Positions 8,424-26,047 of a stretch of DNA of 64,000 bases are shown here, one piece after another. The notes beneath the pieces were generated by a model. That model saw only the letters and a program-made list of their open reading frames with translations. It was not told the origin of the DNA and made no database searches. Both the position numbers and the translations under genes were made by a program. The DNA comes from Escherichia phage ime: the sequence record MN850576.1. One strand, given 5' to 3'. Position 1 is the first letter of the stretch. The number at the start of each line of letters is the position of its first letter.

Positions 8424-10502
8424 TTAAAAAGGTGTTTCATCATCCTCAAAACCAGGGACCGGATCAGAGGATGGATCATCGTATTGGAGGTCTTCCTGCG
8501 TGTCAATAGGCTTGACAGTGGGTGTTACAACCTTATCAGCCACAACCTTGCCCATAGGTGTTTCTACAACTGCATGCTCCTGATCCTCAAACATAGCCTG
8601 AGGTCTCCAAACAACCTCCCCACCTTCTCCGTCTGTAAACATCTGCATTTCTTTGTCCCAGTACCAATTACTGGCATCATGGAACTTACCTGTATGCGGA
8701 TCCATAACTAAAGTGTCAGCAATACCTAAAGTTTTTGCTGGACGGTTTTTAAGACCTACCAGACGGACACGTCCACGAGAACGATCCACCATTTCTTCGG
8801 CCTCGACACCTATGACTACCCAACTCAACTGTTCAAGCCCAGCCGATCCTCGCAAATTCTCTTTTCGCACAGGATACCAGAAAGGTAATGGGTTACCATC
8901 CTTGTCCTTAGGGGGCACAATCTCTGTACGTTTGAGGTGAGCGATCACCAAGATAAACACGTTAAACTGCTTACAAAACGCAGCCAGTTGGGTCATAGCC
9001 ATGTCCAGTTCTTTTCGCTCATCCTTAACATTAAGCCCTGAAATTACCATGGACAGGTGATCCAGCACAATATAACGACAATGGTACAGGCAAACCATTT
9101 GCTTAAGCTTGGTAATCAACTCGTCCACTGGAATAGACCCGAAATGTTTGAACACTTTGATTTTTCCAGCTTTTGCCCATGATTGGTGAATCTCTGCGTG
9201 TTCTTGATCAGTTAAAAACTGGCTAGGATCTTCAACAAACTCTTTAACATCAAACCCTAACTGGTTTGCATACAAGGAGTTAATTGCTTCCTCTGGGTCC
9301 TCCTCAAGATGGATCATACATAGACGATCATCCTCTTCATAGTCATCAGCCTTCGGGCATGTTGGGTCCATTAGGTATCTTGCAATACAATGTTCCAGTT
9401 TTTTAGCTACGGTTGTTTTACCGCCACCTGATGGGCCTGTAAGCATTACAAGTGTCCCCTTGTGCAAGCCTTTTAACATTTTTTGCAGTTTTGGGAACTC
9501 TGCACTGATATCTACCCCGTTGGAAGTCTTTTTCCGCAAAGACTCGATAGAGAAGTCTTCTAAGTCCGACACAGCATCAGGCACGTATTTAACAGGATGC
9601 CGGAACATGTTGACAATATCTTCCAGCTTTTTAGCCTTCAGCATGTCACGGATATCTTTTACCCCGTCAGGGTCATTTACTTCACCAGGGTATTCTACGT
9701 GGTAAACGTTATCAGCCATCAAAAATGCTGCGATATTGTGCGTGGCCTCAACACCTTTAATGACGTGTTTTTGCTTCTCTACCTCGTTGGCTGCATCGTT
9801 ATCCATTGCCAGCACAACTGTTCCATAGCTACGGATAAACTTCTCATTGTTTGCAAAAGTATCTACTGCGTTTGCACATCCACAGTTAATTCCAACAAAA
9901 GGTAGGCAGGGTTTTCCTGCCAGATCACCACCGTTGATAACTGCATCGATCCCGTCCTGGACCTCTTTAGCCCACTGTTTCACCTTTGCCGGGGCTTTAG
10001 CATTGGTGAGAATCCCTTTTACTTGTATCTGATATGCAGCCTGCCATGCTGCAATAACATCGCCTTCCCCCTCACAAACGTTAATCTGCTTACGGTTGTT
10101 AGAAGATGCACACAGCTTTTGCCCAAACATTTGGGAGTTAGCCTTTACGATCCCAACCGTCGTAAAGTGCCCACGTTGCTCTTTGGGGATCGTCCAGTCA
10201 CGCTTTTTGAAACCGGACAGATTCCCGTAGCGGTCGTAATATGGGAAATATGTTGCAGTAACTGTCACACCGTCTTCTTGGGACAATGCTGATCGCACAC
10301 CAAAATATTGTGCAGCCATCAGACCGATATTTTGTTGTGGGACAGGGACAATTTTAGTATTTTCTAAAACAGTCTCTACAGTTTCAACTTCTTTTTCATC
10401 ACGATAGTCTCGTTTCACACTTCCCCCACTTTTATACTTAGTTGCTTTCGGGTTTGGCTCACCGAAACGGTTGTATGCAGATGCCATAAATTTACTTCCC
10501 AT
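8424..10502 (-). CDS. DNA primase-helicase (T7 gp4-like; TOPRIM primase plus DnaB-type helicase)
   Basis: 692 aa; TOPRIM motifs VCEGEGD and AMDNDAAN; Walker A GPSGGGKTT; acidic C-terminal tail ending ...EDDETPF. Confidence 0.8.
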   Translation of the reverse strand: MGSKFMASAYNRFGEPNPKATKYKSGGSVKRDYRDEKEVETVETVLENTKIVPVPQQNIGLMAAQYFGVRSALSQEDGVTVTATYFPYYDRYGNLSGFKKRDWTIPKEQRGHFTTVGIVKANSQMFGQKLCASSNNRKQINVCEGEGDVIAAWQAAYQIQVKGILTNAKAPAKVKQWAKEVQDGIDAVINGGDLAGKPCLPFVGINCGCANAVDTFANNEKFIRSYGTVVLAMDNDAANEVEKQKHVIKGVEATHNIAAFLMADNVYHVEYPGEVNDPDGVKDIRDMLKAKKLEDIVNMFRHPVKYVPDAVSDLEDFSIESLRKKTSNGVDISAEFPKLQKMLKGLHKGTLVMLTGPSGGGKTTVAKKLEHCIARYLMDPTCPKADDYEEDDRLCMIHLEEDPEEAINSLYANQLGFDVKEFVEDPSQFLTDQEHAEIHQSWAKAGKIKVFKHFGSIPVDELITKLKQMVCLYHCRYIVLDHLSMVISGLNVKDERKELDMAMTQLAAFCKQFNVFILVIAHLKRTEIVPPKDKDGNPLPFWYPVRKENLRGSAGLEQLSWVVIGVEAEEMVDRSRGRVRLVGLKNRPAKTLGIADTLVMDPHTGKFHDASNWYWDKEMQMFTDGEGGEVVWRPQAMFEDQEHAVVETPMGKVVADKVVTPTVKPIDTQEDLQYDDPSSDPVPGFEDDETPF

Positions 10503-11256
10503 TAATTCTGCTCCTTACTACAGGCTCGTTTGCTAAGAATACGGCTTTTGCCCAGCCACGTGGTGTGAGGCTTCGGATCATCTTCGTTCTTGCACTCTTC
10601 CCACCCAGCTTGGCGTGTTGCATGGAATACCCGCTAACCGCGTCAACTATTTGCGGGACAGGTTTTGTGGCCGGGATTATAAATCCATTACCTATCCAGC
10701 CGCAAGTTATTTTTGGATAGGCATCACGTGGAGCTATAAATTCAGGAAACCAGGGGTTTACATCATCCTCCGGTAAATACCCGCCATAGTCAGAAGGATG
10801 AAAACGGTAATCAGGTTTGCGCCACAGTGTGGACATAACACCAACAGGATTCTCTACATGCCACGGGCAATCGTAAATCTCTCCCAGCTCTTCCGCAACC
10901 CGAGCATCCTTTACAGCATTAATTTGGATCAAAGGATCCTTAGCCAGCTTTTTCTTAAAATGTGCAGCACCTGATACCGCTAAATGCGTGCACGGAGGAA
11001 ATGCAAGAATAAAGTCTGGAGCTGGATACATGCAAAAAGTTTCCTGAGGGAACCATGGGTCAATCCAATAATCCACATAGTGAATGTTAGGATGATCGGT
11101 TATCACCTCTGCATAACTGCCGTGGTCAGCACCTTCTGCATTAAAGCACAGGCACAGGTACCCAGCTTTTGCCCAGTCAATAACTGCACCACCAGACCCG
11201 TCAAATAGACTCCACACAACACCTTTGTGGTAGTGTTCTTTGTAGATGAATTTCAA
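10492..11256 (-). CDS. putative DNA (cytosine-5)-methyltransferase (short form)
   Basis: Motifs in canonical order: LFDGSGG (motif I), PPC...SGA (motif IV PC), HVENPVG (motif VI ENV). Start moved to TTG 11256, which has AGGAGA 7 nt upstream; the GTG at 11286 used by the ORF track lies inside the terminator hairpin. Confidence 0.55.
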   Translation of the reverse strand: MKFIYKEHYHKGVVWSLFDGSGGAVIDWAKAGYLCLCFNAEGADHGSYAEVITDHPNIHYVDYWIDPWFPQETFCMYPAPDFILAFPPCTHLAVSGAAHFKKKLAKDPLIQINAVKDARVAEELGEIYDCPWHVENPVGVMSTLWRKPDYRFHPSDYGGYLPEDDVNPWFPEFIAPRDAYPKITCGWIGNGFIIPATKPVPQIVDAVSGYSMQHAKLGGKSARTKMIRSLTPRGWAKAVFLANEPVVRSRINGK

Positions 11257-11274
11257 TTTGCTGTCTCCTAATGC

Positions 11275-11301
11275 AAAAAGCCCCACCCTTTCGGGCAGGG
11301 C
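11275..11301 (-). terminator. rho-independent terminator (minus strand)
   Basis: Same hairpin as at 292-313 (GCCCUGCCC-GAAA-GGGUGGGGC) followed by UUUUU on the minus strand; lies downstream of gene 11308..11790. Confidence 0.6.
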
Positions 11302-11307
11302 CTAGTG

Positions 11308-12516: not shown

Positions 12517-13842
12517 TTATTGATCAGAATTATCTTTCGTAATTAAGGTCTGGGTAAGTTTGTAATAGCGGAAGCCACCGCCACCTTGCCAGCTTGCAGA
12601 CTTAGAAATACCACCTTGATCTTCACCATCAATCACTTTTTGCAAGCGAGGGATAATATGGGTATGACAATGATCACCCAGTTCGATCAAGATCCAACGT
12701 CTTTTCATCTTGTGGGCTACAGCAGCAGTAGTTCCCGAACCGCCGAATGAATCCAATACCAAATCACCTTCTCGCGTACACATTTCGAGAATCCGCTTCA
12801 AAAGCGCTTCTGGTTTTTTTCCATTTTTGAAACTAACGCCGCCTTCATTTGCTATTCCATTCCAACTAATGTCTGTCCAAACATCAGTTATTAGTTCCGC
12901 AGGTTGCATCTCACCGTCAATTTCCAAAAGCCTGTTGGAGTAAAAGACCATTTGCCTACCATTTGCGATATAAAATCCTTCAACATCCTCATTCGGATGT
13001 GCATAAACCTTATCCCTATCTTTCTTTGACTTCTCGATAGTTTCTTTTCTCTTTATTTTAGCGCCACCACCAATTGCAACAGATTGAAATACACGTTCTG
13101 CATTATCAATTGCGAATTGTGCTAATTCATCATCGAATGTGTCAGGCAGTTTTTTCTTAGCTTCTTTTGCATCTTTATAGCCATTGGCCTTTGCAAACGC
13201 ATCGGCAATACCGCACCACGTCCAATTTTTATAATGGTCATCCGGGTTTAATAGGTATTTGTTATATCCTGTATCATACCCTTTAGGTATATAGATTTTG
13301 TTAAGCGGTTTCTGGGTGCGATCTTTTGCATATACAAGCAAAAAGTTTGCTGTGGAGAAAACTGTGGCTCCTGTTGCCTTAAATCCCGAAGGGGAATTTG
13401 TGGTCATCGATATGGTATTTAACTGATTTGCACGACCAAAAATCTCGTCCATCAAAACTTTTAAATACGCCATTTCGCAATCATCTAAGTGAACGAATAT
13501 TACCCCATCATCACTTAGAAGATTACGAATTATTTCTAACCTATCCCTCATTAAGCCCAGCCAAATGGAATGCTCAAGGCTATCATCGTAGTGCTCAAAA
13601 GCCCTTCCAGTATTGAATGGTGGGTCTATGTAAACACATTTCACTTTGCCTGCATACTCTTGCTCTAGCGCCTTCAATGCTAATAAGTTATCTCCAAAAA
13701 TCAGTTTATTATCAAAAATATCGTTTTCGGTCACTTTCTGGCTGTGGTAAGACTTGCTAGAATCTTCTAACAAAATGTGCGGCTCTAACTTTTTGCGCTC
13801 GTTTTTACCTATCCAGGTTAGTTCTAATTTGGTTTTACTCAT
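12517..13842 (-). CDS. DNA methyltransferase (N6-adenine or N4-cytosine, beta class)
   Basis: 441 aa; catalytic motif IDPPFNTG (DPPF/Y) followed later by AdoMet motif DSFGGSGTT, the order typical of beta-class amino-methyltransferases. Confidence 0.8.
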   Translation of the reverse strand: MSKTKLELTWIGKNERKKLEPHILLEDSSKSYHSQKVTENDIFDNKLIFGDNLLALKALEQEYAGKVKCVYIDPPFNTGRAFEHYDDSLEHSIWLGLMRDRLEIIRNLLSDDGVIFVHLDDCEMAYLKVLMDEIFGRANQLNTISMTTNSPSGFKATGATVFSTANFLLVYAKDRTQKPLNKIYIPKGYDTGYNKYLLNPDDHYKNWTWCGIADAFAKANGYKDAKEAKKKLPDTFDDELAQFAIDNAERVFQSVAIGGGAKIKRKETIEKSKKDRDKVYAHPNEDVEGFYIANGRQMVFYSNRLLEIDGEMQPAELITDVWTDISWNGIANEGGVSFKNGKKPEALLKRILEMCTREGDLVLDSFGGSGTTAAVAHKMKRRWILIELGDHCHTHIIPRLQKVIDGEDQGGISKSASWQGGGGFRYYKLTQTLITKDNSDQ

Positions 13843-13903: not shown

Positions 13904-14245
13904 CTACTCAAGGTCTTCAGAGTCAAGCTCAAAAAGAATCAAACTGTGCATACCTGCAGAGAGATTAACACACCCTGCAACAATAAGGGTTTGATAGTAA
14001 GGTTCAGCACCCTCAATGTCTTCGTTAAAATCCACAACAAGGTAGTCACCTTTGTTAAAGGTGTATTTGTCCGATGTAAACGCAAAACCTGCCCAGTCCC
14101 CTACTGCAGGATCTTTATCAGTCACCTTTGTTAGCAGTAGATCTTTTTCACGAGATCTTTTAGTAAAATCGTGAATCACAACATCCTTCTCTTCAGGAGT
14201 CGGATTGCCACACACGTAGTTAACGATATTTCTCCACAAACTCAT
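13904..14245 (-). CDS. hypothetical protein
   Basis: 113-aa ORF; stop overlaps helicase gene start region. Confidence 0.5.
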   Translation of the reverse strand: MSLWRNIVNYVCGNPTPEEKDVVIHDFTKRSREKDLLLTKVTDKDPAVGDWAGFAFTSDKYTFNKGDYLVVDFNEDIEGAEPYYQTLIVAGCVNLSAGMHSLILFELDSEDLE

Positions 14246-15612
14246 ACGTCCCCCTCTTCTGCTCTGGTTTCAAAATCTTTCCTGACAATTTTGTCTAAGT
14301 CAGGGAATGTTGTATTGTAAAACTCTACTACTCGCGGGTCAACAATAATGTCAACTTCTCTTAGGGGACGCAACAAGTTTATTCCTTGTATTGTCTTAAC
14401 TCTACTCAAAGCGACATACGTCATCCCAGGAGAGAAAGCTCCGTTCTTTCCAAGGTCTAGGTTGTAACAATCTAGCGTAAGTCCTTGACTTTTATGAGAT
14501 GTTACGGCGTACCCAGATTTCAGAGGAAGTTGCTTGTATGACCCAATCACTACCCTCTCTATAAACTTCTCCATCTTCCTTTCTGCAATGTTGTATCTCT
14601 GAGAGGGCTTATACTCGTTATTCTCCCACAACCTCTGCTCTATGTCAACCTGTGTTCCATCTTCAAGCTCTACCACCACCGCCTTGTTCTTAAATTTAAC
14701 AATTGTGGCACGTGTTCCGTTAACATAATAAGGTACTTTGTGCGTCGGGTCAACATCGTTGGCGGTTATCATAACTTTCATGCCAATTTTCAACTTCATC
14801 TCCTGCTCAACTGGCAGGGTGGAGGGAAACTTACCCTTCATTTCACCAGTGTATACCTTCTCTGGGGCGTTGATGGCATCATAGAACCTTCTGTTTACTT
14901 CCTCTGCTTGTTTGTTGGTGGCGCAAATTGTGAGAGCATCTGTTGGTACACCACCTTTGTAACAGCGAGCATTAAGTTCTGCTACAACCTCTTTTATGCG
15001 ACGACCCTCACGAACACAGTTGAGCATTGTGGCAAATCGAATAGACTCCTGTCGGAACTGATCTATTAGGGCTATGTTGTGGAGGTCAAGCTCTTTCCAA
15101 GATTCGGTGTAGCAACACAGGTCCGTATGGTAGAAGTTGAAGTAGGCTTCCTTCTCCATAGAAGAGACAACAGGAGGTGCCTGGTAAAAATCGCCAAACA
15201 ATATGACCTGTATGCCTCCGAAAGGTTTGTCATTTTTTCGAAGGAAGCGGAGTTTCCTATCCATCTCTATAAACTTATCAGCACGGATCATAGAGATTTC
15301 ATCGATAATTAGGATGGTAAATGCCTTGCTTTTCAAAGGCTTTGCTGTTTTTGCCCTTATTGCGGTCCAGTCCGACTCCATGCTCACACCTGCTGCAAGA
15401 TCGAATGTTCGGTGTGCTGTTGCTCCATTAACGTTTAAAGCGGCTACCCCTGTCGGGGCAACCGTTATGCAAGAGTCTCCATACATTGACTGGATCATGT
15501 TGATGAGATACGTCTTCCCACAACCTGCAGGTCCTGAAACGAAGACATTCTCACCACTCATGATTGCAATGAGGGCAGCATCTGTGCCTACGTCATACTG
15601 CCCTTTTTCCAT
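14242..15612 (-). CDS. SF1B DNA helicase (Dda/RecD/Pif1-like)
   Basis: 456 aa; Walker A GPAGCGKTY, Walker B IIDEISM, GDFYQ motif, and C-terminal TSHKSQG characteristic of Dda/RecD-type helicases. Confidence 0.8.
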   Translation of the reverse strand: MEKGQYDVGTDAALIAIMSGENVFVSGPAGCGKTYLINMIQSMYGDSCITVAPTGVAALNVNGATAHRTFDLAAGVSMESDWTAIRAKTAKPLKSKAFTILIIDEISMIRADKFIEMDRKLRFLRKNDKPFGGIQVILFGDFYQAPPVVSSMEKEAYFNFYHTDLCCYTESWKELDLHNIALIDQFRQESIRFATMLNCVREGRRIKEVVAELNARCYKGGVPTDALTICATNKQAEEVNRRFYDAINAPEKVYTGEMKGKFPSTLPVEQEMKLKIGMKVMITANDVDPTHKVPYYVNGTRATIVKFKNKAVVVELEDGTQVDIEQRLWENNEYKPSQRYNIAERKMEKFIERVVIGSYKQLPLKSGYAVTSHKSQGLTLDCYNLDLGKNGAFSPGMTYVALSRVKTIQGINLLRPLREVDIIVDPRVVEFYNTTFPDLDKIVRKDFETRAEEGDV

Positions 15613-16817
15613 TACGCCTCCTCGTAGATAATGTCGATGATGTTACCATCACGGTCAACTACGTATTCAATCGGATCGCCATCTTTGCGTGATTCCGGTG
15701 CTGCTACGATTTCGTAGCGGCATGCACGGCACTTAGCACTGTTGTGTTGGTATGGCACACTAACCACATCCGCAGGGTCAACCATAACCATCATTATAGT
15801 GCCATAGCCCGCTGCATACTCTTTGCTGGCGCAGTGCAGGCCATAAGAACACGCAGCTTCCGGATCATCTTCTACAAAGTTACGAGGCATGGACACAAAA
15901 GCACCCTGGTATTGTGGAACTTTACCGCTGTGCCAATCCACCCACCTGCTCCCGTTAAACTGAACCCCCTTATAGCAAATGATTCGACCATCTTCTGCAA
16001 CCTGGATGTCATTAGCCTGCATGAAATCGTAGAGCATGTTCACAGATTTTGCAGACGGGTTGCGTAGCAGACGGACAAGGAATTTAACATATCGGTCGTC
16101 CAGTGTTCCATCTACATAATCTTCCTCAATTTTCTTTGCAATGGTGGATCGCATCTCTACACCGTAGTAGTAGAGCTTACCATCTTTCATGATCAGGTTG
16201 TCTGCAAGTGTGGTGAACTCATTCTTGCGTTCCAGCCAGACAAGGATTTCACCAATTGCCTCATCATATTCCTGAACAGAAATATGGTCGAAGACTTTCT
16301 GGTAAACTTCCTCACTTTCGCTGCGGCGAATTTCAAAAATGCCTTCGTTGCAGGTGATCTGGAGGAGTTCCCCGCAAATAACTACCAAAGGCTCGATGCT
16401 TCGAGACTGTTGCTGAGACACACTGCTCACCACTTCCAGCACCGGATCTTTGACTTCTACTAAAGGTTCTTCTGACTTGATTGCTACCCCAGTGACCCCC
16501 GCACCGTGAACAACACACAGTGGGTATACCACGCCCCAACGTTTAACGGAACCTTCACCTGAATCTAAGATCATGGCGTACTTACCGTTGTCTTCCAGTC
16601 CGTAGCGGAATAAACGGGCCTCTTCGCGGGTTTCAAAATCCTCACGGGTATAGCAGACACTGTCTCGGTCAGGATCAAACAGCTCTGGGGCACCTACTGC
16701 CAGTGTCCATGTTGTAGTACCTTTCTCAATAGCACATGTGAAACCCTTCTTCTCAAGTTCTGCACGGCGGTCGCGTGCTTCTTTACGAGTTTTGAAATGT
16801 TCGTAGATGAAAATCAT
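15612..16817 (-). CDS. hypothetical protein with N-terminal tandem ~40-aa repeats
   Basis: 401 aa; two repeats F[KE]TR[KE]EAR..R..LE..G at the N-terminus; Cys/His-containing C-terminal region with no family recognised; translationally coupled between the GHKL ATPase and helicase genes. Confidence 0.5.
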   Translation of the reverse strand: MIFIYEHFKTRKEARDRRAELEKKGFTCAIEKGTTTWTLAVGAPELFDPDRDSVCYTREDFETREEARLFRYGLEDNGKYAMILDSGEGSVKRWGVVYPLCVVHGAGVTGVAIKSEEPLVEVKDPVLEVVSSVSQQQSRSIEPLVVICGELLQITCNEGIFEIRRSESEEVYQKVFDHISVQEYDEAIGEILVWLERKNEFTTLADNLIMKDGKLYYYGVEMRSTIAKKIEEDYVDGTLDDRYVKFLVRLLRNPSAKSVNMLYDFMQANDIQVAEDGRIICYKGVQFNGSRWVDWHSGKVPQYQGAFVSMPRNFVEDDPEAACSYGLHCASKEYAAGYGTIMMVMVDPADVVSVPYQHNSAKCRACRYEIVAAPESRKDGDPIEYVVDRDGNIIDIIYEEA

Positions 16818-16827
16818 AGCTGTCTCC

Positions 16828-18810
16828 TTATTTGGTGTTATTCTTTGCGTCGATCAGTTCACGGTATTCAATCATAGCAGGAGTGTCCCAATATTTCAAG
16901 CCCACATGCTTCAAAAGTGGATATTTCTTTTCCAATCTTGCAATATAGGCCTTCCCGCACTTGACTCGGTTGGCGATTAAGATTTTGGCACGATGATTTA
17001 GCTCACTGTGCTTCCACGCGGTGTTACCTTCCCACTTGTGGAAATGTGGCCGATAATTTCCAAAATCTTGCATGGGGATAATTTTCCCTAATTGTCTATA
17101 CAGGCTGTCATATGAAGTTTCATTTGCTGCGCGAGTCAGTAAGAATTTCCAGGCGTCCTCTTTCAACAAATGTTCCACATTTTTCTCTGTAACATACTGG
17201 CAATCAGGATCAGTCCAAAGCAGACGAGATTCTGATACCAGGTACAGATCTTCCCCTTCAGGAATCTGGAGTGCCGCACGCACACGGTCATAATTTTGCT
17301 GGTAGATGTTACTTAGCTGTCCCAGCCAACAACTTCCACGTTGGATATCACCCTCATAAGGAATGCAGTGCTTAATCTTCTTGAACTCTGCCTTAGTAAT
17401 ACGTTCACGACGGAAGTAACCATCCTTCTCAAGCTTTTTAACCCAATAACCTGGCTCGTAATGAGTTTTTGTTTCACCTTTCTTCGCAGGTCGGCGAGGG
17501 AGCTCTGATAACAATTTGACAGTATCTGCAAAGAACGGATGGTGTGCCGCCTCTTTAAACTCTTTCACCAGATCCGTGTTCCGGCAATAGAAAACGTTGC
17601 GTCCGGTGATTTCGCTTAAGTAGTTACACTTATTTCGGTTATATTTACCATCTCCGTCGTTAAATACAAGGTATACACCTCGTAAGAACTCCGACTTTCC
17701 GTAACGAGCATAGCCTATGCGGTCTTTATTTAAGCCGCCAGCGAAAATTTCACAATCGCCTAAGTCGCCAAGCCCTGTTTCTTCCCAACGGTTCCACATA
17801 AAGTTTTTGCCGAAGATGTGTCCGAACACTCCACTATTCTTCATCATTTCACGTGCTTCTGCGGAGGTTTTTGCCGTCTCCAGTTCTGCAATAACTTCTG
17901 CCCCGCGAAGACGTATACCTTCTTTGACAAAGGCCTCCAGGCGATCCTGGAATCCACCGTCGTCATGGCCCTCTATGGTCCATTCACGCCCAGGGTTAAT
18001 ATTGCAATCCCCAATAGGAATTTCCACGCAGATTGCAGGGTAATCGGTCAATGTCTCCAGGAACTTGGAGCGGTAAGGTTGGTGACCCATCACAACACGG
18101 CTCTCATCAGAACTGGTATAACCTTTCAGGATGGTCATTTTCCAGCCATCCTTCTCGTAATGATACTGTGCCTCAACCTTGTCACCTTCTAACATCTTAC
18201 TGGTCATAGGATCGGTGACGATGAACGGAAACTTCGCATAGCGTAAGCACGATGCAATAGCAGTGCGATATTTCAGGACATGCTCTTTCTTAACATGGAA
18301 CTGAACTTTTACCCCGTTGTGCTCTTCAGTCTTCCGCTCACGGATCTTGGTAACGTTTGGGATACCCTGATCCAAGAACAATAGATATGTGCTTTCAACA
18401 CCATTGTGCACACTGATAACATCGAAAGTGTCCACCATACTGAACGGAGCCTTTGAACCAACACCTTTATTACCTACCAGAGCGTTGCTGTTGCGCTTGG
18501 TTGACTCCCCGAGATTCATGAAAGTGTTGCGGACCATCTCTTCTGACATGCCCAATCCAACGTCCTGCACAAAGAAGTATGGTTCAAGGTCTGTAGGAGA
18601 GTGAATGATGATCGGTACATCACCCCGTCCAGACTCAACATGGGAGTCCACAGCATTGAAGATTGGTTCACGGCAGCTTGCCAGCACCTTATCTTCGTAA
18701 ATCCCTTTAATGATTAGCCCAAAAGTCTCTTTGTTCAGAGAAATTGAGCCCCTGGTGACCTCCATATTTCCGGTCAGCACTGCTTTAGTTTCATTACTGT
18801 TTACAATCAT
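16828..18810 (-). CDS. GHKL-superfamily ATPase (Hsp90/MORC-like Bergerat fold) with large uncharacterised C-terminal region
   Basis: 660 aa; N-box EPIFNAVDS, G1 box VQDVGLGM, NLGESTK and G2 VGNKGVGSK in GHKL order; about 480 aa downstream with no recognisable motif. Confidence 0.6.
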   Translation of the reverse strand: MIVNSNETKAVLTGNMEVTRGSISLNKETFGLIIKGIYEDKVLASCREPIFNAVDSHVESGRGDVPIIIHSPTDLEPYFFVQDVGLGMSEEMVRNTFMNLGESTKRNSNALVGNKGVGSKAPFSMVDTFDVISVHNGVESTYLLFLDQGIPNVTKIRERKTEEHNGVKVQFHVKKEHVLKYRTAIASCLRYAKFPFIVTDPMTSKMLEGDKVEAQYHYEKDGWKMTILKGYTSSDESRVVMGHQPYRSKFLETLTDYPAICVEIPIGDCNINPGREWTIEGHDDGGFQDRLEAFVKEGIRLRGAEVIAELETAKTSAEAREMMKNSGVFGHIFGKNFMWNRWEETGLGDLGDCEIFAGGLNKDRIGYARYGKSEFLRGVYLVFNDGDGKYNRNKCNYLSEITGRNVFYCRNTDLVKEFKEAAHHPFFADTVKLLSELPRRPAKKGETKTHYEPGYWVKKLEKDGYFRRERITKAEFKKIKHCIPYEGDIQRGSCWLGQLSNIYQQNYDRVRAALQIPEGEDLYLVSESRLLWTDPDCQYVTEKNVEHLLKEDAWKFLLTRAANETSYDSLYRQLGKIIPMQDFGNYRPHFHKWEGNTAWKHSELNHRAKILIANRVKCGKAYIARLEKKYPLLKHVGLKYWDTPAMIEYRELIDAKNNTK

Positions 18811-19307
18811 TTATTGCGCTCCTTGTAGTAGATATGGCTCCCGAATTGAGCTGTCCTCTGCATCTTTTTTGCCCATTTCGGTCGTACTTTGGTTGTATGG
18901 TAGTGTGTTGCTCCACCTGTTATGTCCATAGCCATGTATGCAACATGGTTGTTATTATAGACCTTTAGAAGCATCTTTGCAAGACTTTTAGCGTGATCCC
19001 ATGAATCTTTTTCTGTCACCTTAAAAGTTTTGCCGTGGTTTGTCCACGAAAACTGGTTAGGTTGGTAGACAATCTTTCTTATAGTGTCTGGGTATTTAGG
19101 GTGGGATTTCCTGTTTAGTGTGGCAAACCCAGATGCCAGCATACCCATCGTGCCATCTCCTCTAGCTTCCCTGTAGATATTGCATGCCAGAATGTTTTCC
19201 TTAGTATCTGATGGCTTGCAAGTATGATATACTTTTTGTTTTTGTGCTGCAACAACAGGCAGCGATAAAAGTGCGCTCAAAATAATAGCAAAGATCTTAA
19301 TTTTCAC
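18807..19307 (-). CDS. secreted cell-wall hydrolase, SleB family (candidate endolysin)
   Basis: 166 aa; N-terminal signal peptide MKIKIFAIILSALLSLPVVAA; motifs NIYREARGDG ... TLNR ... QF typical of SleB-type hydrolases. Confidence 0.65.
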   Translation of the reverse strand: MKIKIFAIILSALLSLPVVAAQKQKVYHTCKPSDTKENILACNIYREARGDGTMGMLASGFATLNRKSHPKYPDTIRKIVYQPNQFSWTNHGKTFKVTEKDSWDHAKSLAKMLLKVYNNNHVAYMAMDITGGATHYHTTKVRPKWAKKMQRTAQFGSHIYYKERNK

Positions 19308-19317
19308 AATGACTCCA

Positions 19318-19343
19318 AATAGAAAATCCCCGCCGAAGCGGGG
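19318..19343 (-). terminator. rho-independent terminator (minus strand)
   Basis: Minus-strand hairpin CCCCGC-UUCG-GCGGGG followed by AUUUUCU; between gene 19357..19785 and the SleB-like gene. Confidence 0.55.
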
Positions 19344-19356
19344 GAGGTCTTAGAAA

Positions 19357-19785
19357 TTAATCGTAGTGTGCCAAAATCTCTCCATCGTTGCAAGTTCCCT
19401 CTACAAAGTTATGAAGATTCATGCACTCATCTTGATAGAAGAATTTACCGCTTTTCAGCCGTAGGCCAAACAACTCCGCATCTCCACGATGGCAAGCCTC
19501 TACAAGTTCATAGATTTCATACGGCAACTCTCCGTCGTCATGGAAGAATCCAGCCTTATCGTTGACATAAATGAAGAAATAATCACTGCTATCGCAAGCG
19601 TCCAATATTTTAAACCAGACTTCATCTACATCTTTTTCTCGGATATCGATCACGCAAGTGGAGCTGCATTCGTACTCCTTCTCCGGCTCCTCGGTCAATA
19701 CCACCAGGTAGTTTCCCCGCTTACCTACTTTAGCCATACAACCCCCCTTAAGCTTTAGCCAAAATGGCGCTAAACTCTTCACCAA
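19357..19785 (-). CDS. hypothetical protein
   Basis: 142-aa ORF. Confidence 0.5.
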   Translation of the reverse strand: MVKSLAPFWLKLKGGCMAKVGKRGNYLVVLTEEPEKEYECSSTCVIDIREKDVDEVWFKILDACDSSDYFFIYVNDKAGFFHDDGELPYEIYELVEACHRGDAELFGLRLKSGKFFYQDECMNLHNFVEGTCNDGEILAHYD

Positions 19786-20932
19786 ACTCTTTTACAATCT
19801 TCATCAGGTTTGGGTATGCTTTGATCAGCTGAGCAACAATCTTGTCACGCCCTTTACCGATAAGCAAGGCATTTCCTAAGGCATTAGGTTTCATCATCGC
19901 CATAAAGACTGAGAATACAAAATCTCGGTTCTCGTCCTTGAAGTTTTCCCAAAGGAAATCGAGGAAGTTTGCCACGCAGCTGACAAGATCTTCGTCTGAG
20001 ATACTTGCATTTTCCATCATATTGCGAATAGCGATACAACCTTCAGATCCAAGAATCCACAAAATGTCTGGCTGCTTAGGACCTACGTATTCTTTGCAGC
20101 CACCTGCCATAATCCGACCGATTTCCGGTAAATTACGTTTCTTGGTGTGGTAAGTCCAGATCTCTACCGCTGCAGTGTGACCAATAGCACCTTGTAGAAG
20201 AACACGGGCCATAGCGTCAGAAATAATACCGCTGTCAAAATCGTGCAAGATGTCAGATGCAGCAACCCAAGATCGTGGTGTGGCAAAAGATGGACAATTA
20301 ATCTCAGCCATAGCCTCATAATTATCAATAGCTGATGGAACTCTTTTCAGATACCCAATTACAGAGGAGTGAACCCCGTTGAGGAATGCGTAGTCCTCAA
20401 TAAACACCTCTGCATTGCTTGTAACCTCTACAATGATAAAACGGTTAGCCAGAGGGGCTTCGAGCGCCGAAAGAACCGCACCATCTGTAGAACGGTTACC
20501 CGCAGCCACAAAAACAGAACCCTTAGGGAATGCATAGGTGCCGCACTTGTGGTCAAGCATAATTTGCATTGCAACCTTTTGCAGGTAGTTATCTGCATGA
20601 GTGAGCTCATCCAGAAAGATAATTCCGCTCCAGTCAGGATCCGCAGGCCAAAATTCTGGAATTGCAAACACTGTACGTGTAGTTCCATCCGCTTCTACAG
20701 GGATAGGTAGCCCAGATAAGTCGGCAGGATCTTTATCTGACAGTCGCACGTCAACAAGGTTGTCATCTCGCTCACCGAACATATTATCAGCGATCTGCTT
20801 CATCACCTGGCTTTTACCCACACCCATTGGTCCCAAAATTAGGACAGATCGGCTATGACGTTGGGCAAACTGAATAATAGCTGGCAACTCACGGACAGTG
20901 ATTTGACCACTTTCGAATACGTTTCTTGACAT
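19748..20932 (-). CDS. AAA+ ATPase (MoxR/AAA_5-like)
   Basis: 394 aa; Walker A GPMGVGKSQ, Walker B IIFLDELTHA, sensor-like AAGNRS. Confidence 0.7.
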   Translation of the reverse strand: MSRNVFESGQITVRELPAIIQFAQRHSRSVLILGPMGVGKSQVMKQIADNMFGERDDNLVDVRLSDKDPADLSGLPIPVEADGTTRTVFAIPEFWPADPDWSGIIFLDELTHADNYLQKVAMQIMLDHKCGTYAFPKGSVFVAAGNRSTDGAVLSALEAPLANRFIIVEVTSNAEVFIEDYAFLNGVHSSVIGYLKRVPSAIDNYEAMAEINCPSFATPRSWVAASDILHDFDSGIISDAMARVLLQGAIGHTAAVEIWTYHTKKRNLPEIGRIMAGGCKEYVGPKQPDILWILGSEGCIAIRNMMENASISDEDLVSCVANFLDFLWENFKDENRDFVFSVFMAMMKPNALGNALLIGKGRDKIVAQLIKAYPNLMKIVKEFGEEFSAILAKA

Positions 20933-22537: not shown

Positions 22538-23433
22538 ACCCTCGCATAAATTAAACTTGTATCAGTATACTTCTTTAATGGGTAAATATCCTGTCCATAG
22601 ATGCAATCATTAAACACCTCATCTACCCAAAGGCTACACTTATATCCCATCATTTCTAAAACACCCATCTCTTCTTCGGTAAACTTATCACCGCTCTTGC
22701 AAGATGTCAATACCTCATTCTGAACTCTTGCTACCTCGAAGCGGTTATTGGCAATATCGCTATTGGCGATCAAATACTCACCTAGAGGGTGTGCGGCATT
22801 AAAGATGCACAGTGGACGGCTGACGTAATAGTCTCCAGGTGTATAAAAATTGTTGAGGTCTTTCACTAGAACATTCTTATCAGTCACTTCATTTATAACA
22901 TCATGCATATCGCACATCTTTATATGTTTGAGGATTCCATCCCCCATCACAAAATAAAAACTTGCTGAGACACTTTCGGCATAGATCTTACTAGATCCGT
23001 TGTAGTTGTATTTTACTCGGATGCTAACGGGGGTTTTTCCTGTCGCGTTAGCCATCATCCAAAGAAATGGCAGCTCATACTTCTCCTCTGAGGAAACAAA
23101 AGGTGAGGTAGCCAGAGATCGAAAACCTCCAGAGAAGTTGAAAGTTACAGAACCGCTCCGGCGGTATGATACCGCGTATTCTACTTTTATATCGACATAC
23201 CCATTGGAATAGGTGTGTCCTTCATTATCTAAATATGTCCACTTATCAGACCCAGATACCAATCTACGCTCAATAACCTTCATCACTATAGGAATTAATG
23301 GGTTGGTACAAACCGCTTTTGAAGTAGCTTTATCATCTAAAGCCTCGTAAATTGCAGAAAGGATGTCCCCAGCTGAAAGATTGGTTGTTATGTCCTGTTT
23401 CCACCGCGTACTAAAACTGTTAAGATTTGCCAT
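22534..23433 (-). CDS. hypothetical protein (first gene of leftward operon)
   Basis: 299-aa ORF; AGGAG RBS upstream of ATG 23433; sits downstream of the leftward sigma70-like promoter. Confidence 0.55.
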   Translation of the reverse strand: MANLNSFSTRWKQDITTNLSAGDILSAIYEALDDKATSKAVCTNPLIPIVMKVIERRLVSGSDKWTYLDNEGHTYSNGYVDIKVEYAVSYRRSGSVTFNFSGGFRSLATSPFVSSEEKYELPFLWMMANATGKTPVSIRVKYNYNGSSKIYAESVSASFYFVMGDGILKHIKMCDMHDVINEVTDKNVLVKDLNNFYTPGDYYVSRPLCIFNAAHPLGEYLIANSDIANNRFEVARVQNEVLTSCKSGDKFTEEEMGVLEMMGYKCSLWVDEVFNDCIYGQDIYPLKKYTDTSLIYARV

Positions 23434-23473
23434 AAGTAAGTGCTCCTATGTTAGTTTTCTTTCGAATGGGTGC

Positions 23474-23502
23474 ACTATATTGTGGAGTTAGAGTAAAGTC
23501 AA
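23474..23502 (-). promoter_or_regulatory. sigma70-like promoter, leftward (-35 TTGACT, 17-nt spacer, -10 TATAGT)
   Basis: On the minus strand: TTGACT-N17-TATAGT, about 40 nt upstream of the gene start at 23433. Confidence 0.55.
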
Positions 23503-23509
23503 CACGTTT

Positions 23510-24553
23510 TTGATGTTGACATCTGTTGAGACAATTGATACGATTTCTTCACTTACAGAGCACGAGAGACGACTCATGAATCTTGAAAAATATTATACAC
23601 CAGAAGAGTTAGAGCGCTTGCTCAAAAAATATAGACGCAAACAGAATAACGCACGGAAACGAGATATAGAGTTCGACCTGTCATGGGAAGAATACCTCCT
23701 ATTTGGTAAAAAACTTTTAGGAGATGGAGTATGCGACTATACCCTTATACCTTTTGACATGCACACAGATGAAAACGGGCTGGGGAATCCTTTCTACCCA
23801 TCTCTGGAGCGGATAGATGATGAAGGTCCTTATGCGGTTGATAACTGTTGTGTGGTGGGATTGAGATGCAACTCTCTAAAGGACTGTCTGGTAGATAAAA
23901 AGACTGCAGTCTTGATTAAAGACGAAACTGATCGAAAAATTGTCCAGCAGATGATGCTCCACCTGAGCGAAGAGCGTATGGAGAAATTGAAAGGTGATTA
24001 TACTTTTGAAGATTTCATCTTGCAATATGGAACGGAAGAGGATAAACTAGCACTCTTTGACGAAGAAGAGGAGGAAGATATGCTACCGATGTCTAAAGTT
24101 ACTTATCGTGCACCCAAGAAGCACATTTCCGACATTGTAAACGAGCCTATCACAGAAGAGATTGAAGAAATGACGCAACAGGTGCATGAAGAGGAAAAAG
24201 AGACTCAGGAGGTCGAAGAGGAGCTTACAGAAGAGGTTCCTGCACTACCTGATGATGTTGAGATTGCCAAAGCTTACACTTTCTATTGTCAAACGTTCTA
24301 CGATGTAGGTATGAAAGTTGATCTGTCGTTCAGCCAATTTAAGAGTTCGTATATTCGCAAATGCTGTGCTTTAACTGGTGAACGTCTTGGAGCTGGACTT
24401 AAACCCCTGTTGGTGACCGACTGGAATAAAGGTTTCACTAAAGGAAACTTTATGGTAGTATCTCCAATTATGGAGAAAGCTATGACAGATCTTATGAAGA
24501 CCACCCGCATGACAATGACCGAGTTGGCAGGTATTTTCAAACACGTTAAATAA
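23510..24553 (+). CDS. hypothetical protein with two degenerate HNH (His-Me finger)-like domains
   Basis: 347-aa ORF; two halves share the pattern [FV]DLS...C..TG...[RW]...G[YF]...N..VV...K; the catalytic His appears replaced in both. Start may be ATG 23576 if the promoter at 23516-23544 is used. Confidence 0.5.
   Translation: MMLTSVETIDTISSLTEHERRLMNLEKYYTPEELERLLKKYRRKQNNARKRDIEFDLSWEEYLLFGKKLLGDGVCDYTLIPFDMHTDENGLGNPFYPSLERIDDEGPYAVDNCCVVGLRCNSLKDCLVDKKTAVLIKDETDRKIVQQMMLHLSEERMEKLKGDYTFEDFILQYGTEEDKLALFDEEEEEDMLPMSKVTYRAPKKHISDIVNEPITEEIEEMTQQVHEEEKETQEVEEELTEEVPALPDDVEIAKAYTFYCQTFYDVGMKVDLSFSQFKSSYIRKCCALTGERLGAGLKPLLVTDWNKGFTKGNFMVVSPIMEKAMTDLMKTTRMTMTELAGIFKHVK
23516..23544 (+). promoter_or_regulatory. 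sigma70-like promoter, rightward (-35 TTGACA, 17-nt spacer, -10 TACGAT)
   Basis: TTGACA at 23516-23521, 17-nt spacer, TACGAT at 23539-23544; divergent from the leftward promoter. Confidence 0.5.
24084..24112. repeat. 29-bp perfect inverted repeat copy B (partner at 22222..22250)
   Basis: taccgatgtctaaagttacttatcgtgca; encodes LPMSKVTYRA in the interdomain linker of ORF 23510..24553 and follows a GAGGAGGA and ATG. Confidence 0.85.
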
Positions 24554-24565
24554 TGACAGGGGCCA

Positions 24566-26047
24566 ATGGCCCCTTCTGGAGTTTTAATGGATAGTAGAAG
24601 TTCAGAAATCATTGCCTCGCAGAAAGATGATGCCCTGAGAATGTTGCAGGCTGCACGTATGTATCTCCTTGAAAAGCTGCCGTTTTATGGCACACTACTG
24701 TCAGGGTTGCAGTTCGTAGAAAACCACACATGGTGCTCCACCATGGCAACCGACCATAAACGCATCTATTACAGTCCTGAGTTCATTATGGGATTGGCTG
24801 ATGAACGCAAGGCTATTCTTAAGGCTTCTCTAACTGACGAGCAGTTTGAGATGGCTGAAGTTTTCTATTCCCCAAAATCTGTGAAAGAGGTGGCCTTCCT
24901 TCTGTCACATGAGGTGGGGCATATTATCTGTGATCACCTAGTCCGTGGTAAAAGCTTTGAGCCGGAACTGTTCAATATTGCTTGTGATCACGTTATCAAC
25001 ACAGGCCTTGTGGTTGACTTTAGCAAACCTCCTTGTGTTTTCTTCCCGAAGGGGAAAAGCACTACGTTCATGAAAGGTAAGCCTTTTGGCTTCTTAGCCA
25101 GCTGCTACTGCGACATGAAGTTTCATGGATGGATTGCTGAGAACGTTTATGCAGTTCTTGATAAGCAAAGAGATCAGAATAACGGTAAAAGTAAGAACGG
25201 TAAAGGTGAGAACTCTCAAAGTGATAAGCGACAAACCGATGATCACATGAGTGGGAACGGTGGCACCAGTGATAATCTTGGAAAGGCTATGAGGTATGAT
25301 CAGCCACAACCTGTAATCAGCCAATCTGATAAAGATCAGGCCATGCAGGACTCTGGTGATATGCTGGAGGCAGCAATGCAAGCGTCCGGAGGCCGTTGCC
25401 CTGAGGCGGTGCGTGAGTTTGTCAAGAACAGAGGTAAGCCTGTAATCAACTATATAGACATCATTAAGCAACGTATGTTGTCTAAAAGAAAGGCCGAACT
25501 GACCTACAGAAAACCTGGTCGCCGATCTGGGTCTTTGACCAGCACAATGCGAAAAGTTGGGGCTATAAACAAGAACCAGCACGTTATTGTTCCTGGTCGT
25601 AATCCGGAAAACACTATAGATATTGTGGTGGCTTTAGACGTTTCTGGCTCGATCTCTCAAAGAACTTTAAAGAAAATGTTCAATGAAATCACCGGATTGT
25701 GCAATCTGTATAAAGAGTTTAAGGTTACAATGTTCTGTTGGTCAACTGAGGTTGGAGAGGTTAAAGTATACACTCGCGGCAACATAGACGAGATGGTCAA
25801 CTATGAGGTCCACTCAACATGGGGCACAACAGCTGCTTGCGTGTTCGAGTATCTGGATGCCAACATACCTAATGCAAAAGATGTCATCGTCCTGACCGAC
25901 CTATACTTTGAGCATAACTTTGAACAAAAGGTTGTTGACAACAAGTGGAAAAAGTACGATACTCTATGGGTCCTCACTGAGGGGTATAATAAAAATTATA
26001 TCCCGAGCTTTGGGAAAACTGTGGAATTAATCGAGTACGCTAAGTAA
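24566..26047 (+). CDS. putative metallopeptidase plus VWA domain protein
   Basis: 493 aa; HExxH motif (LSHEVGHIICDH) in the N-terminal half; MIDAS-like VVALDVSGSIS in the C-terminal half. Alternative start ATG 24587 has a GGAG RBS. Confidence 0.65.
   Translation: MAPSGVLMDSRSSEIIASQKDDALRMLQAARMYLLEKLPFYGTLLSGLQFVENHTWCSTMATDHKRIYYSPEFIMGLADERKAILKASLTDEQFEMAEVFYSPKSVKEVAFLLSHEVGHIICDHLVRGKSFEPELFNIACDHVINTGLVVDFSKPPCVFFPKGKSTTFMKGKPFGFLASCYCDMKFHGWIAENVYAVLDKQRDQNNGKSKNGKGENSQSDKRQTDDHMSGNGGTSDNLGKAMRYDQPQPVISQSDKDQAMQDSGDMLEAAMQASGGRCPEAVREFVKNRGKPVINYIDIIKQRMLSKRKAELTYRKPGRRSGSLTSTMRKVGAINKNQHVIVPGRNPENTIDIVVALDVSGSISQRTLKKMFNEITGLCNLYKEFKVTMFCWSTEVGEVKVYTRGNIDEMVNYEVHSTWGTTAACVFEYLDANIPNAKDVIVLTDLYFEHNFEQKVVDNKWKKYDTLWVLTEGYNKNYIPSFGKTVELIEYAK

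Follow-up and report, generated by a model that had tools for sequence, protein, structure and literature searches.

The DNA analysed here is a stretch of 64,000 nucleotides (nt) from Escherichia phage ime (MN850576.1), referred to below as the window, in which three adjoining minus-strand genes at positions 14242–18810 attracted attention. This locus is very probably the counter-defence module rIIA-rIIB of an rV5/Murica-like coliphage (Vequintavirus), lying inside a longer, tightly coupled string of early genes, among them those for a cell-wall hydrolase and a Pif1-type helicase as well as a small open reading frame (ORF). The rII locus is that of Benzer, and rIIA and rIIB are among the longest-known phage genes. 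The original prediction, made from the sequence alone, had described the three genes as an operon encoding a novel GHKL ATPase of 660 amino acids (aa), a 401-aa tandem-repeat protein of unknown fold, and a Dda-like helicase, and had proposed a new replication, recombination, or anti-defence module. The three minus-strand ORFs are present with the coordinates and lengths it gave, and its two unknown proteins are placed by profile and structure searches as RIIA and RIIB.

The best PHROG match of the 660-aa protein is phrog_612 ‘RIIA’ (E 2e-124), with residues 1–656 aligned to positions 1–722 of a 725-position profile, and that of the 401-aa protein is phrog_609 ‘RIIB’ (E 3e-60, residues 132–375), the same two families being the best matches of T4 RIIA (E 9e-250) and T4 RIIB (E 7e-111) respectively. 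Direct comparison by BLASTP recovers T4 RIIA at 28% identity over 198 aa in the N-terminal region (E 3e-21), and T4 RIIB at 36% identity over 204 aa of the conserved core (E 4e-38). A Foldseek search of BFVD with the RIIB model returned 31 matches at E<=1e-3, these being RIIBs of many phage groups, with the function names all of the rIIB or ‘protector from prophage-induced early lysis’ type except for one ‘Transposase’, and the remainder unnamed.

At the nucleotide level the locus is matched by 120 phage records, 95 of them at an identity of at least 95%, and GenBank records of the locus (90–99% identity) are in the majority annotated rIIA, rIIB, and helicase. Identity across the entire 4569-nt locus is 96.8–98.6% in the fifteen Vequintavirus records listed, with phage EdH4 at 97.9% over all 4569 nt. 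RIIA of the window is 99.8% identical to that of Murica, and the RIIA protein search found matches in 2646 phage records. The novelty claimed for the 660-aa and 401-aa proteins does not hold, as both belong to the PHROG families of T4 RIIA and RIIB, match the T4 proteins directly, and are already annotated in most of the near-identical records; furthermore, rII knock-down has been reported in EdH4 (PMC11879866), and the GHKL domain of RIIA, together with a variable C-terminus, has already been described (PMC7824862). The finding is already known, being the rII locus encountered anew in a phage genus that has been sampled well. Annotation within the genus is inconsistent, with the rIIA and rIIB orthologues of EdH4 (MK327930.1) and HdK5 (MK373780.1) labelled ‘hypothetical protein’ and their Pif1-like helicase ‘putative helicase-primase subunit’; these and other records could be corrected.

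The N-terminal Bergerat fold attributed to the 660-aa protein is well founded, with all four motifs quoted for it present in the translation and Pfam HATPase_c_3 matched over its gathering cut-off (E 1.7e-8). The key GHKL residues E48, N52, D55, D83, G85, G87, S103, T104, K105, G113, G116, G118, and K120 are invariant across 30 homologues, and the predicted model has a mean predicted local distance difference test (pLDDT) score of 82.6. A profile search of RIIA against the PDB returns Hsp90s first (E 4e-8), a single-sequence PDB search gives nothing significant (best E 0.06), and scans of NCBIfam and PADLOC reveal no RIIA family, with sub-threshold GHKL-type matches only. The model implies that RIIA extends beyond the GHKL domain alone to a second, transducer-like domain at residues ~191–285 in which Y246, R275, and E276 are likewise invariant in 30 homologues. 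A structure search with residues 286–660 finds no PDB counterpart despite a confident model. The absence of a TOPRIM, GyrA-like, or MutL C-terminal partner from this protein is borne out, and the ~480 aa of sequence said to be unrecognisable was an overstatement, as residues ~190–285 model as transducer-like and the PHROG profile of RIIA matches the protein over its full length.

In the predicted model of RIIB (mean pLDDT 74.6) the core at residues 143–397 is well modelled and a linker at residues 100–142 is disordered. The core carries a CSxGLH motif that is invariant in the RIIBs of five phages from four families or subfamilies (Vequintavirinae, Straboviridae, Ounavirinae, and Schitoviridae), and also in 30 closer homologues; the five carriers are Vequintavirus, Seunavirus, T4, Mooglevirus, and Litunavirus. 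The motifs DVVS-P and K-R--Y are, like CSxGLH, common to RIIB of the window and of T4. The core has no PDB fold relative, with a single-sequence PDB search of RIIB giving nothing significant (best E 0.077), and no RIIB family is found in the NCBIfam and PADLOC scans. The conserved pair C323 and H328 may point to an active site or to the binding site of a ligand in this fold. The C-terminal domain had been described as Cys/His-rich, which does not hold: the whole 401-aa protein contains 10 Cys and 6 His, RIIB of T4, Mooglevirus, or Litunavirus does not conserve the CxxC at 363/366, and only C323 and H328 are invariant. A conserved zinc site in this domain was also considered and found to be unsupported, with the CxxC not kept outside the Vequintavirinae. 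A newer Pfam release apparently already holds a family for the RIIB core, PF26926.1 being listed in a precomputed Pfam column for every RIIB homologue (P0001–P0120), whilst local Pfam-A gives no such match for RIIB of either the window or T4. In one homologue of 498 aa (P0005), tetratricopeptide (TPR) repeats are joined to the RIIB core.

The two repeats reported in the N-terminal part of RIIB are real, with the local alignment of residues 5–25 and 58–78 scoring 44, a value reached by one of 2000 shuffles, the motif F-x-[ST]-R-x-x-A-R...W conserved in both units, and each unit modelled as a beta-alpha-beta-beta element. A library-wide phmmer search with the N-terminal 103 aa found only two representatives in 1.84 billion clustered proteins and no link to other architectures; the repeat module is lineage-restricted or fast-evolving. 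The N-terminus of T4 RIIB gives a helix-turn-helix (HTH) match (HTH_7, 23.6 bits), whereas that of the window gives none, and Mooglevirus RIIB has a weak HTH match, probably at the same N-terminal place as that of T4. RIIB therefore has an N-terminal module that can be exchanged, which is an HTH in T4 (and probably in Mooglevirus) and two beta-alpha-beta-beta repeats here, and the N-terminal HTH is a feature of T4 that probably does not define the RIIB family.

The genes rIIA and rIIB are adjacent, in that order and on the same strand, in Vequintavirus, Seunavirus SalP219, Mooglevirus SFPB, Litunavirus Pa2, and T4. Among these five lineages the helicase gene comes next after rIIB only in Vequintavirus and Seunavirus, both Vequintavirinae, and not in T4, Mooglevirus, or Litunavirus, so that the conserved unit is the rIIA-rIIB pair. 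In Escherichia phage RB43 the two proteins are naturally fused into one chain of 1049 aa (UniProt Q56C47), the C-terminal part of which matches the RIIB model of the window (Foldseek E 1.3e-16). The existence of this fusion accounts for the dual behaviour of phrog_609 (1055 positions), the N-terminus of which matches RIIA sequences and the C-terminus RIIB sequences. Two further long RIIA-like proteins (P0150 and P0152) were considered as RIIA-RIIB fusions and rejected, with BLASTP to RIIB of the window not significant. The A-then-B order kept across four families or subfamilies, together with the RB43 fusion, suggests RIIB as the obligate partner of RIIA.

RIIA and RIIB are reported to be needed on hosts with Rex-type (lambda RexAB) abortive infection and to be dispensable on ordinary hosts. 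Knock-down of RIIA or RIIB by CRISPRi-ART in phages T4, MM02, EdH4, SUSP1, and N4 left plating unaffected without Rex and reduced the efficiency of plating on lambda RexAB hosts (PMC11879866), and in a HIDEN-SEQ preprint insertions in T4 rIIA and rIIB were depleted only on RexAB hosts (bioRxiv 10.1101/2025.11.20.689424). RexB is a four-helix inner-membrane protein, with RexA its DNA-binding partner (PMC11077077; PMC8594841). We propose that RIIA would be a GHL-type ATPase with a GHKL and a transducer-like domain, as in Hsp90, MutL, MORC, and GyrB, the N-terminal domains of which probably dimerise (close) upon ATP binding, and that its lineage-variable C-terminal ~370 aa may serve target or partner contacts. 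RIIB would supply the conserved core with the invariant CSxGLH motif and the exchangeable N-terminal module, and the two proteins could jointly block the RexA-dependent activation of the membrane protein RexB, and hence membrane depolarisation. Anti-defence was among the functions offered in the original prediction, which to that extent anticipated this role; the module it was offered for is not new. The anatomy described here, namely a two-domain GHL-type ATPase, a RIIB core with CSxGLH, an exchangeable N-terminal module, and the RB43 fusion, gives mutagenesis targets for the mechanism of rII.

Several points weigh against the identification of the locus as an rII module directed at Rex, or against parts of it. 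Pairwise similarity to T4 RIIA is confined to the N-terminal ~190 aa, with nothing significant past residue ~190 by BLASTP and similarity beyond that point seen at the profile level only. The Rex dependence ascribed to ime is carried over from the 97.9%-identical EdH4 rather than drawn from the window phage, and the putative ATP-driven dimerisation, RIIA-RIIB complex, and action on RexAB are deduced from the fold, the gene order, and the fusion protein of RB43. RexAB is perhaps not the natural or sole target, as the BASEL study found very few wild-type phages to be inhibited by RexAB and questioned defence as its main role (PMC8594841). Additionally, RIIB of T6 sets off a CARD-gasdermin defence system and is toxic if produced on its own (bioRxiv 10.1101/2023.05.28.542683), which suggests that RIIB acts in the cell in its own right. 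Finally, a functional link between rIIB and the helicase is possible, given that their tight coupling is kept down to Seunavirus SalP219, where the rIIA-rIIB-helicase order persists with abutting coordinates at an RIIA identity of 39.7%.

The helicase itself is an SF1B enzyme, as had been proposed, matching Pfam PIF1 at E 1.5e-32 (113.4 bits against a gathering cut-off of 25.9) and PDB Pif1 structures over its full length at E 1e-64 to 1e-48 (8bns, E 1e-64; 5ftb, E 2e-59; 6s3e, E 1e-52), with GPAGCGKT as its Walker A motif. It also matches phrog_325, a family named ‘Dda-like helicase’ (E 1e-111), however its similarity to T4 Dda is weak (BLASTP 27% identity over 172 aa, E 5e-6), and ‘Pif1-like’ is therefore more accurate than the ‘Dda-like’ first applied to it. 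Both junctions described in the original prediction are found in the sequence, with rIIA and rIIB separated by TAA, the 10-nt gap ggagacagct (which contains a GGAG Shine-Dalgarno sequence), and ATG, and the rIIB stop and helicase start overlapping by one nucleotide in TAATG. The coupled string extends beyond three genes, with the hydrolase gene and the 113-aa ORF also joined to it by ATGA overlaps at the start of rIIA and the stop of the helicase gene respectively; the operon originally drawn is thus coupled as claimed and too short at both ends.

In an unlikely alternative, the Pif1-type helicase of the Vequintavirinae would form a true three-component module with the two RII proteins, acting for instance on intermediates of replication or recombination by which Rex is triggered. 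This reading fits the one-nucleotide overlap of rIIB with the helicase gene and the gene order retained in Seunavirus SalP219 at ~40% RIIA identity. The HTH-like N-terminal segments of T4 and Mooglevirus RIIB would suit such a module, as would the treatment of RIIB as a DNA-binding regulator in a survey by the Aravind laboratory (PMC7824862). Overlapping stop and start codons are nevertheless the rule throughout the gene string, unrelated genes included, and T4, Mooglevirus, and Litunavirus have no helicase after rIIB. The helicase following rIIB only in the Vequintavirinae, it does not form part of a conserved three-gene module, and is most likely an ordinary replication or recombination helicase that is merely co-expressed with the rIIA-rIIB pair.

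A role in the timing of lysis, in which the RII proteins would govern the envelope or the secreted cell-wall hydrolase encoded next to them and the SPOR-like repeats of RIIB would bind peptidoglycan, appears highly improbable. The genes are named from a historical ‘rapid lysis’ phenotype and carry the annotation ‘lysis inhibitor’, and the gene coupled to rIIA through ATGA encodes a SleB-like hydrolase that begins with a signal-peptide-like segment, and stands upstream of rIIA in Seunavirus too; rIIAB of Mooglevirus and Litunavirus, however, has no adjoining hydrolase. The Pfam SPOR match (PF05036) is borderline, at 22.4 bits against a cut-off of 21 for the N-terminal 103 aa alone, with the whole of RIIB scoring 18.2, below the cut-off, and the beta-alpha-beta-beta unit is matched by designed mini-proteins and many unrelated folds at least as well as by SPOR. 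Furthermore, neither a signal peptide nor a transmembrane segment is present in RIIB, the peak 19-residue hydropathy of which (1.64) lies in the non-conserved linker, and a periplasmic peptidoglycan-binding role is therefore unlikely.

The probability that the locus encodes a split type II topoisomerase or DNA-topology machine, with the 660-aa protein as ATPase subunit and the 401-aa protein as cleavage core, is close to nil, this scenario, named in the original prediction as its own refutation, having come out negative without rescuing the claim of novelty: Pfam, NCBIfam, and PADLOC give no TOPRIM, GyrA, or Spo11 domain in either protein, the PDB profile search places RIIA nearest to Hsp90s and not topoisomerases, no PDB match is found for RIIA beyond residue 285, RIIB lacks a GyrA/Spo11-type winged-helix cleavage core, both proteins belong to the RIIA and RIIB families, and phages do not need their rII genes when Rex is absent (PMC11879866).

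The features of the rII locus and of the genes joined to it are collected in the table below.

Table 1. Position of the rII genes of Escherichia phage ime, their domains, and adjoining features (window coordinates; residue boundaries given with ~ are approximate).
Feature	Position	Strand	Basis or remark
Terminator-like GC hairpin, possible 5' boundary of transcription unit	19328-19343	minus	Consensus match only
SleB-like cell-wall hydrolase gene	18807-19307	minus	Pfam Hydrolase_2, E 2e-19
rIIA gene, 660 aa	16828-18810	minus	ORF and RIIA family matches
GHKL (Bergerat) ATP-binding domain, RIIA residues ~26-190	18241-18735	minus	
Second, transducer-like domain (predicted), RIIA residues ~191-285	17956-18240	minus	Approximate boundaries
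RIIA C-terminal region, residues ~286-660	16831-17955	minus	Confident model, no PDB fold match
rIIB gene, 401 aa	15612-16817	minus	ORF and RIIB family matches
RIIB N-terminal repeat 1, residues 3-42	16692-16811	minus	Beta-alpha-beta-beta unit
RIIB N-terminal repeat 2, residues 56-99	16521-16652	minus	Beta-alpha-beta-beta unit
RIIB linker, residues 100-142	16392-16520	minus	pLDDT 24-27; length varies among homologues
RIIB conserved core, residues 143-401	15615-16391	minus	Shared with T4 RIIB
CSxGLH motif of RIIB core, C323...H328	15834-15851	minus	Invariant
Pif1-family SF1B helicase gene, 456 aa	14242-15612	minus	ORF and Pfam, PDB, and PHROG matches
113-aa ORF, function unassigned	13904-14245	minus	phrog_11869, E 2e-78
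Second strong GC-rich terminator-like hairpin	11278-11303	minus	

The two minus-strand hairpins bracket a packed string of ~8 kb comprising the hydrolase, rIIA, rIIB, helicase, 113-aa ORF, an N6 adenine methyltransferase, and small ORFs, and may delimit a single transcription unit. A scan of the window for promoters and terminators gave counts equal to chance expectation, with only these two strong GC hairpins noteworthy, and a scan for tRNA genes found none. Transcription switches divergently at ~23433–23510, with minus-strand genes to the left and plus-strand genes to the right and a change in the sign of the GC skew; the ORFs to the right of the switch (23510–24553 and 24566–26047) are annotated ‘anti-sigma factor’ in related phages.

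The endolysin-like hydrolase gene is oddly placed within a string of early and replication genes, in a position upstream of rIIA that it also occupies in Seunavirus SalP219, and its product begins with the signal-peptide-like sequence MKIKIFAIILSALLSLPVVAAQ. Two genes upstream of rIIA, a MoxR-like AAA ATPase is encoded at 19748–20932 on the minus strand (phrog_1297, E 2e-110). A 2025 preprint reports bas54_0063, a ‘MoxR ATPase’ gene carried by Bas54 (Vequintavirinae), as an anti-defence gene needed against the predicted defence system DS-28 (10.1101/2025.11.20.689424), and were the MoxR-like ORF of the window its orthologue, a putative assignment, the early region would cluster counter-defence genes. 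Downstream of the helicase, two DNA methyltransferase-like genes lie close together on the minus strand (12517–13842 and 10492–11286), one matching Pfam N6_N4_Mtase (E 8.5e-43) and the other, a 264-aa ORF, named ‘Dcm’ in the annotation of phage nomo and without a Pfam match here. The BASEL study found the Vequintavirinae to be exceptionally sensitive to restriction-modification systems, despite such methyltransferase-like genes.

Compared with known systems, the locus shows essentially no differences from those of the Vequintavirus phages EdH4, Murica, and nomo and of rV5-like isolates, which have the same neighbouring genes as the window. T4 shares the A-then-B order, with denB.1/denB after rIIB in place of the Pif1-type helicase found here. 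T4 RIIA is longer (725 aa compared with 660 aa) and 28% identical in the N-terminal GHKL domain, and T4 RIIB is shorter (312 aa compared with 401 aa), with two repeats and a disordered linker here standing in for its N-terminal HTH. In RB43 the two proteins form a single polypeptide, whereas in the window they are encoded by two translationally coupled genes. The helicase resembles bacterial Pif1 (PDB 5ftb/5fhd) over its full length, with T4 Dda a distant cousin. The GHL ATPases, namely Hsp90/TRAP1/HtpG, MutL, MORC, and GyrB/ParE/topo VI-B, share 9–18% sequence identity with RIIA, which differs from them in having neither the C-terminal dimerisation domain of Hsp90, nor the endonuclease/dimerisation domain of MutL, nor a TOPRIM domain, nor a CW/zinc-finger domain.

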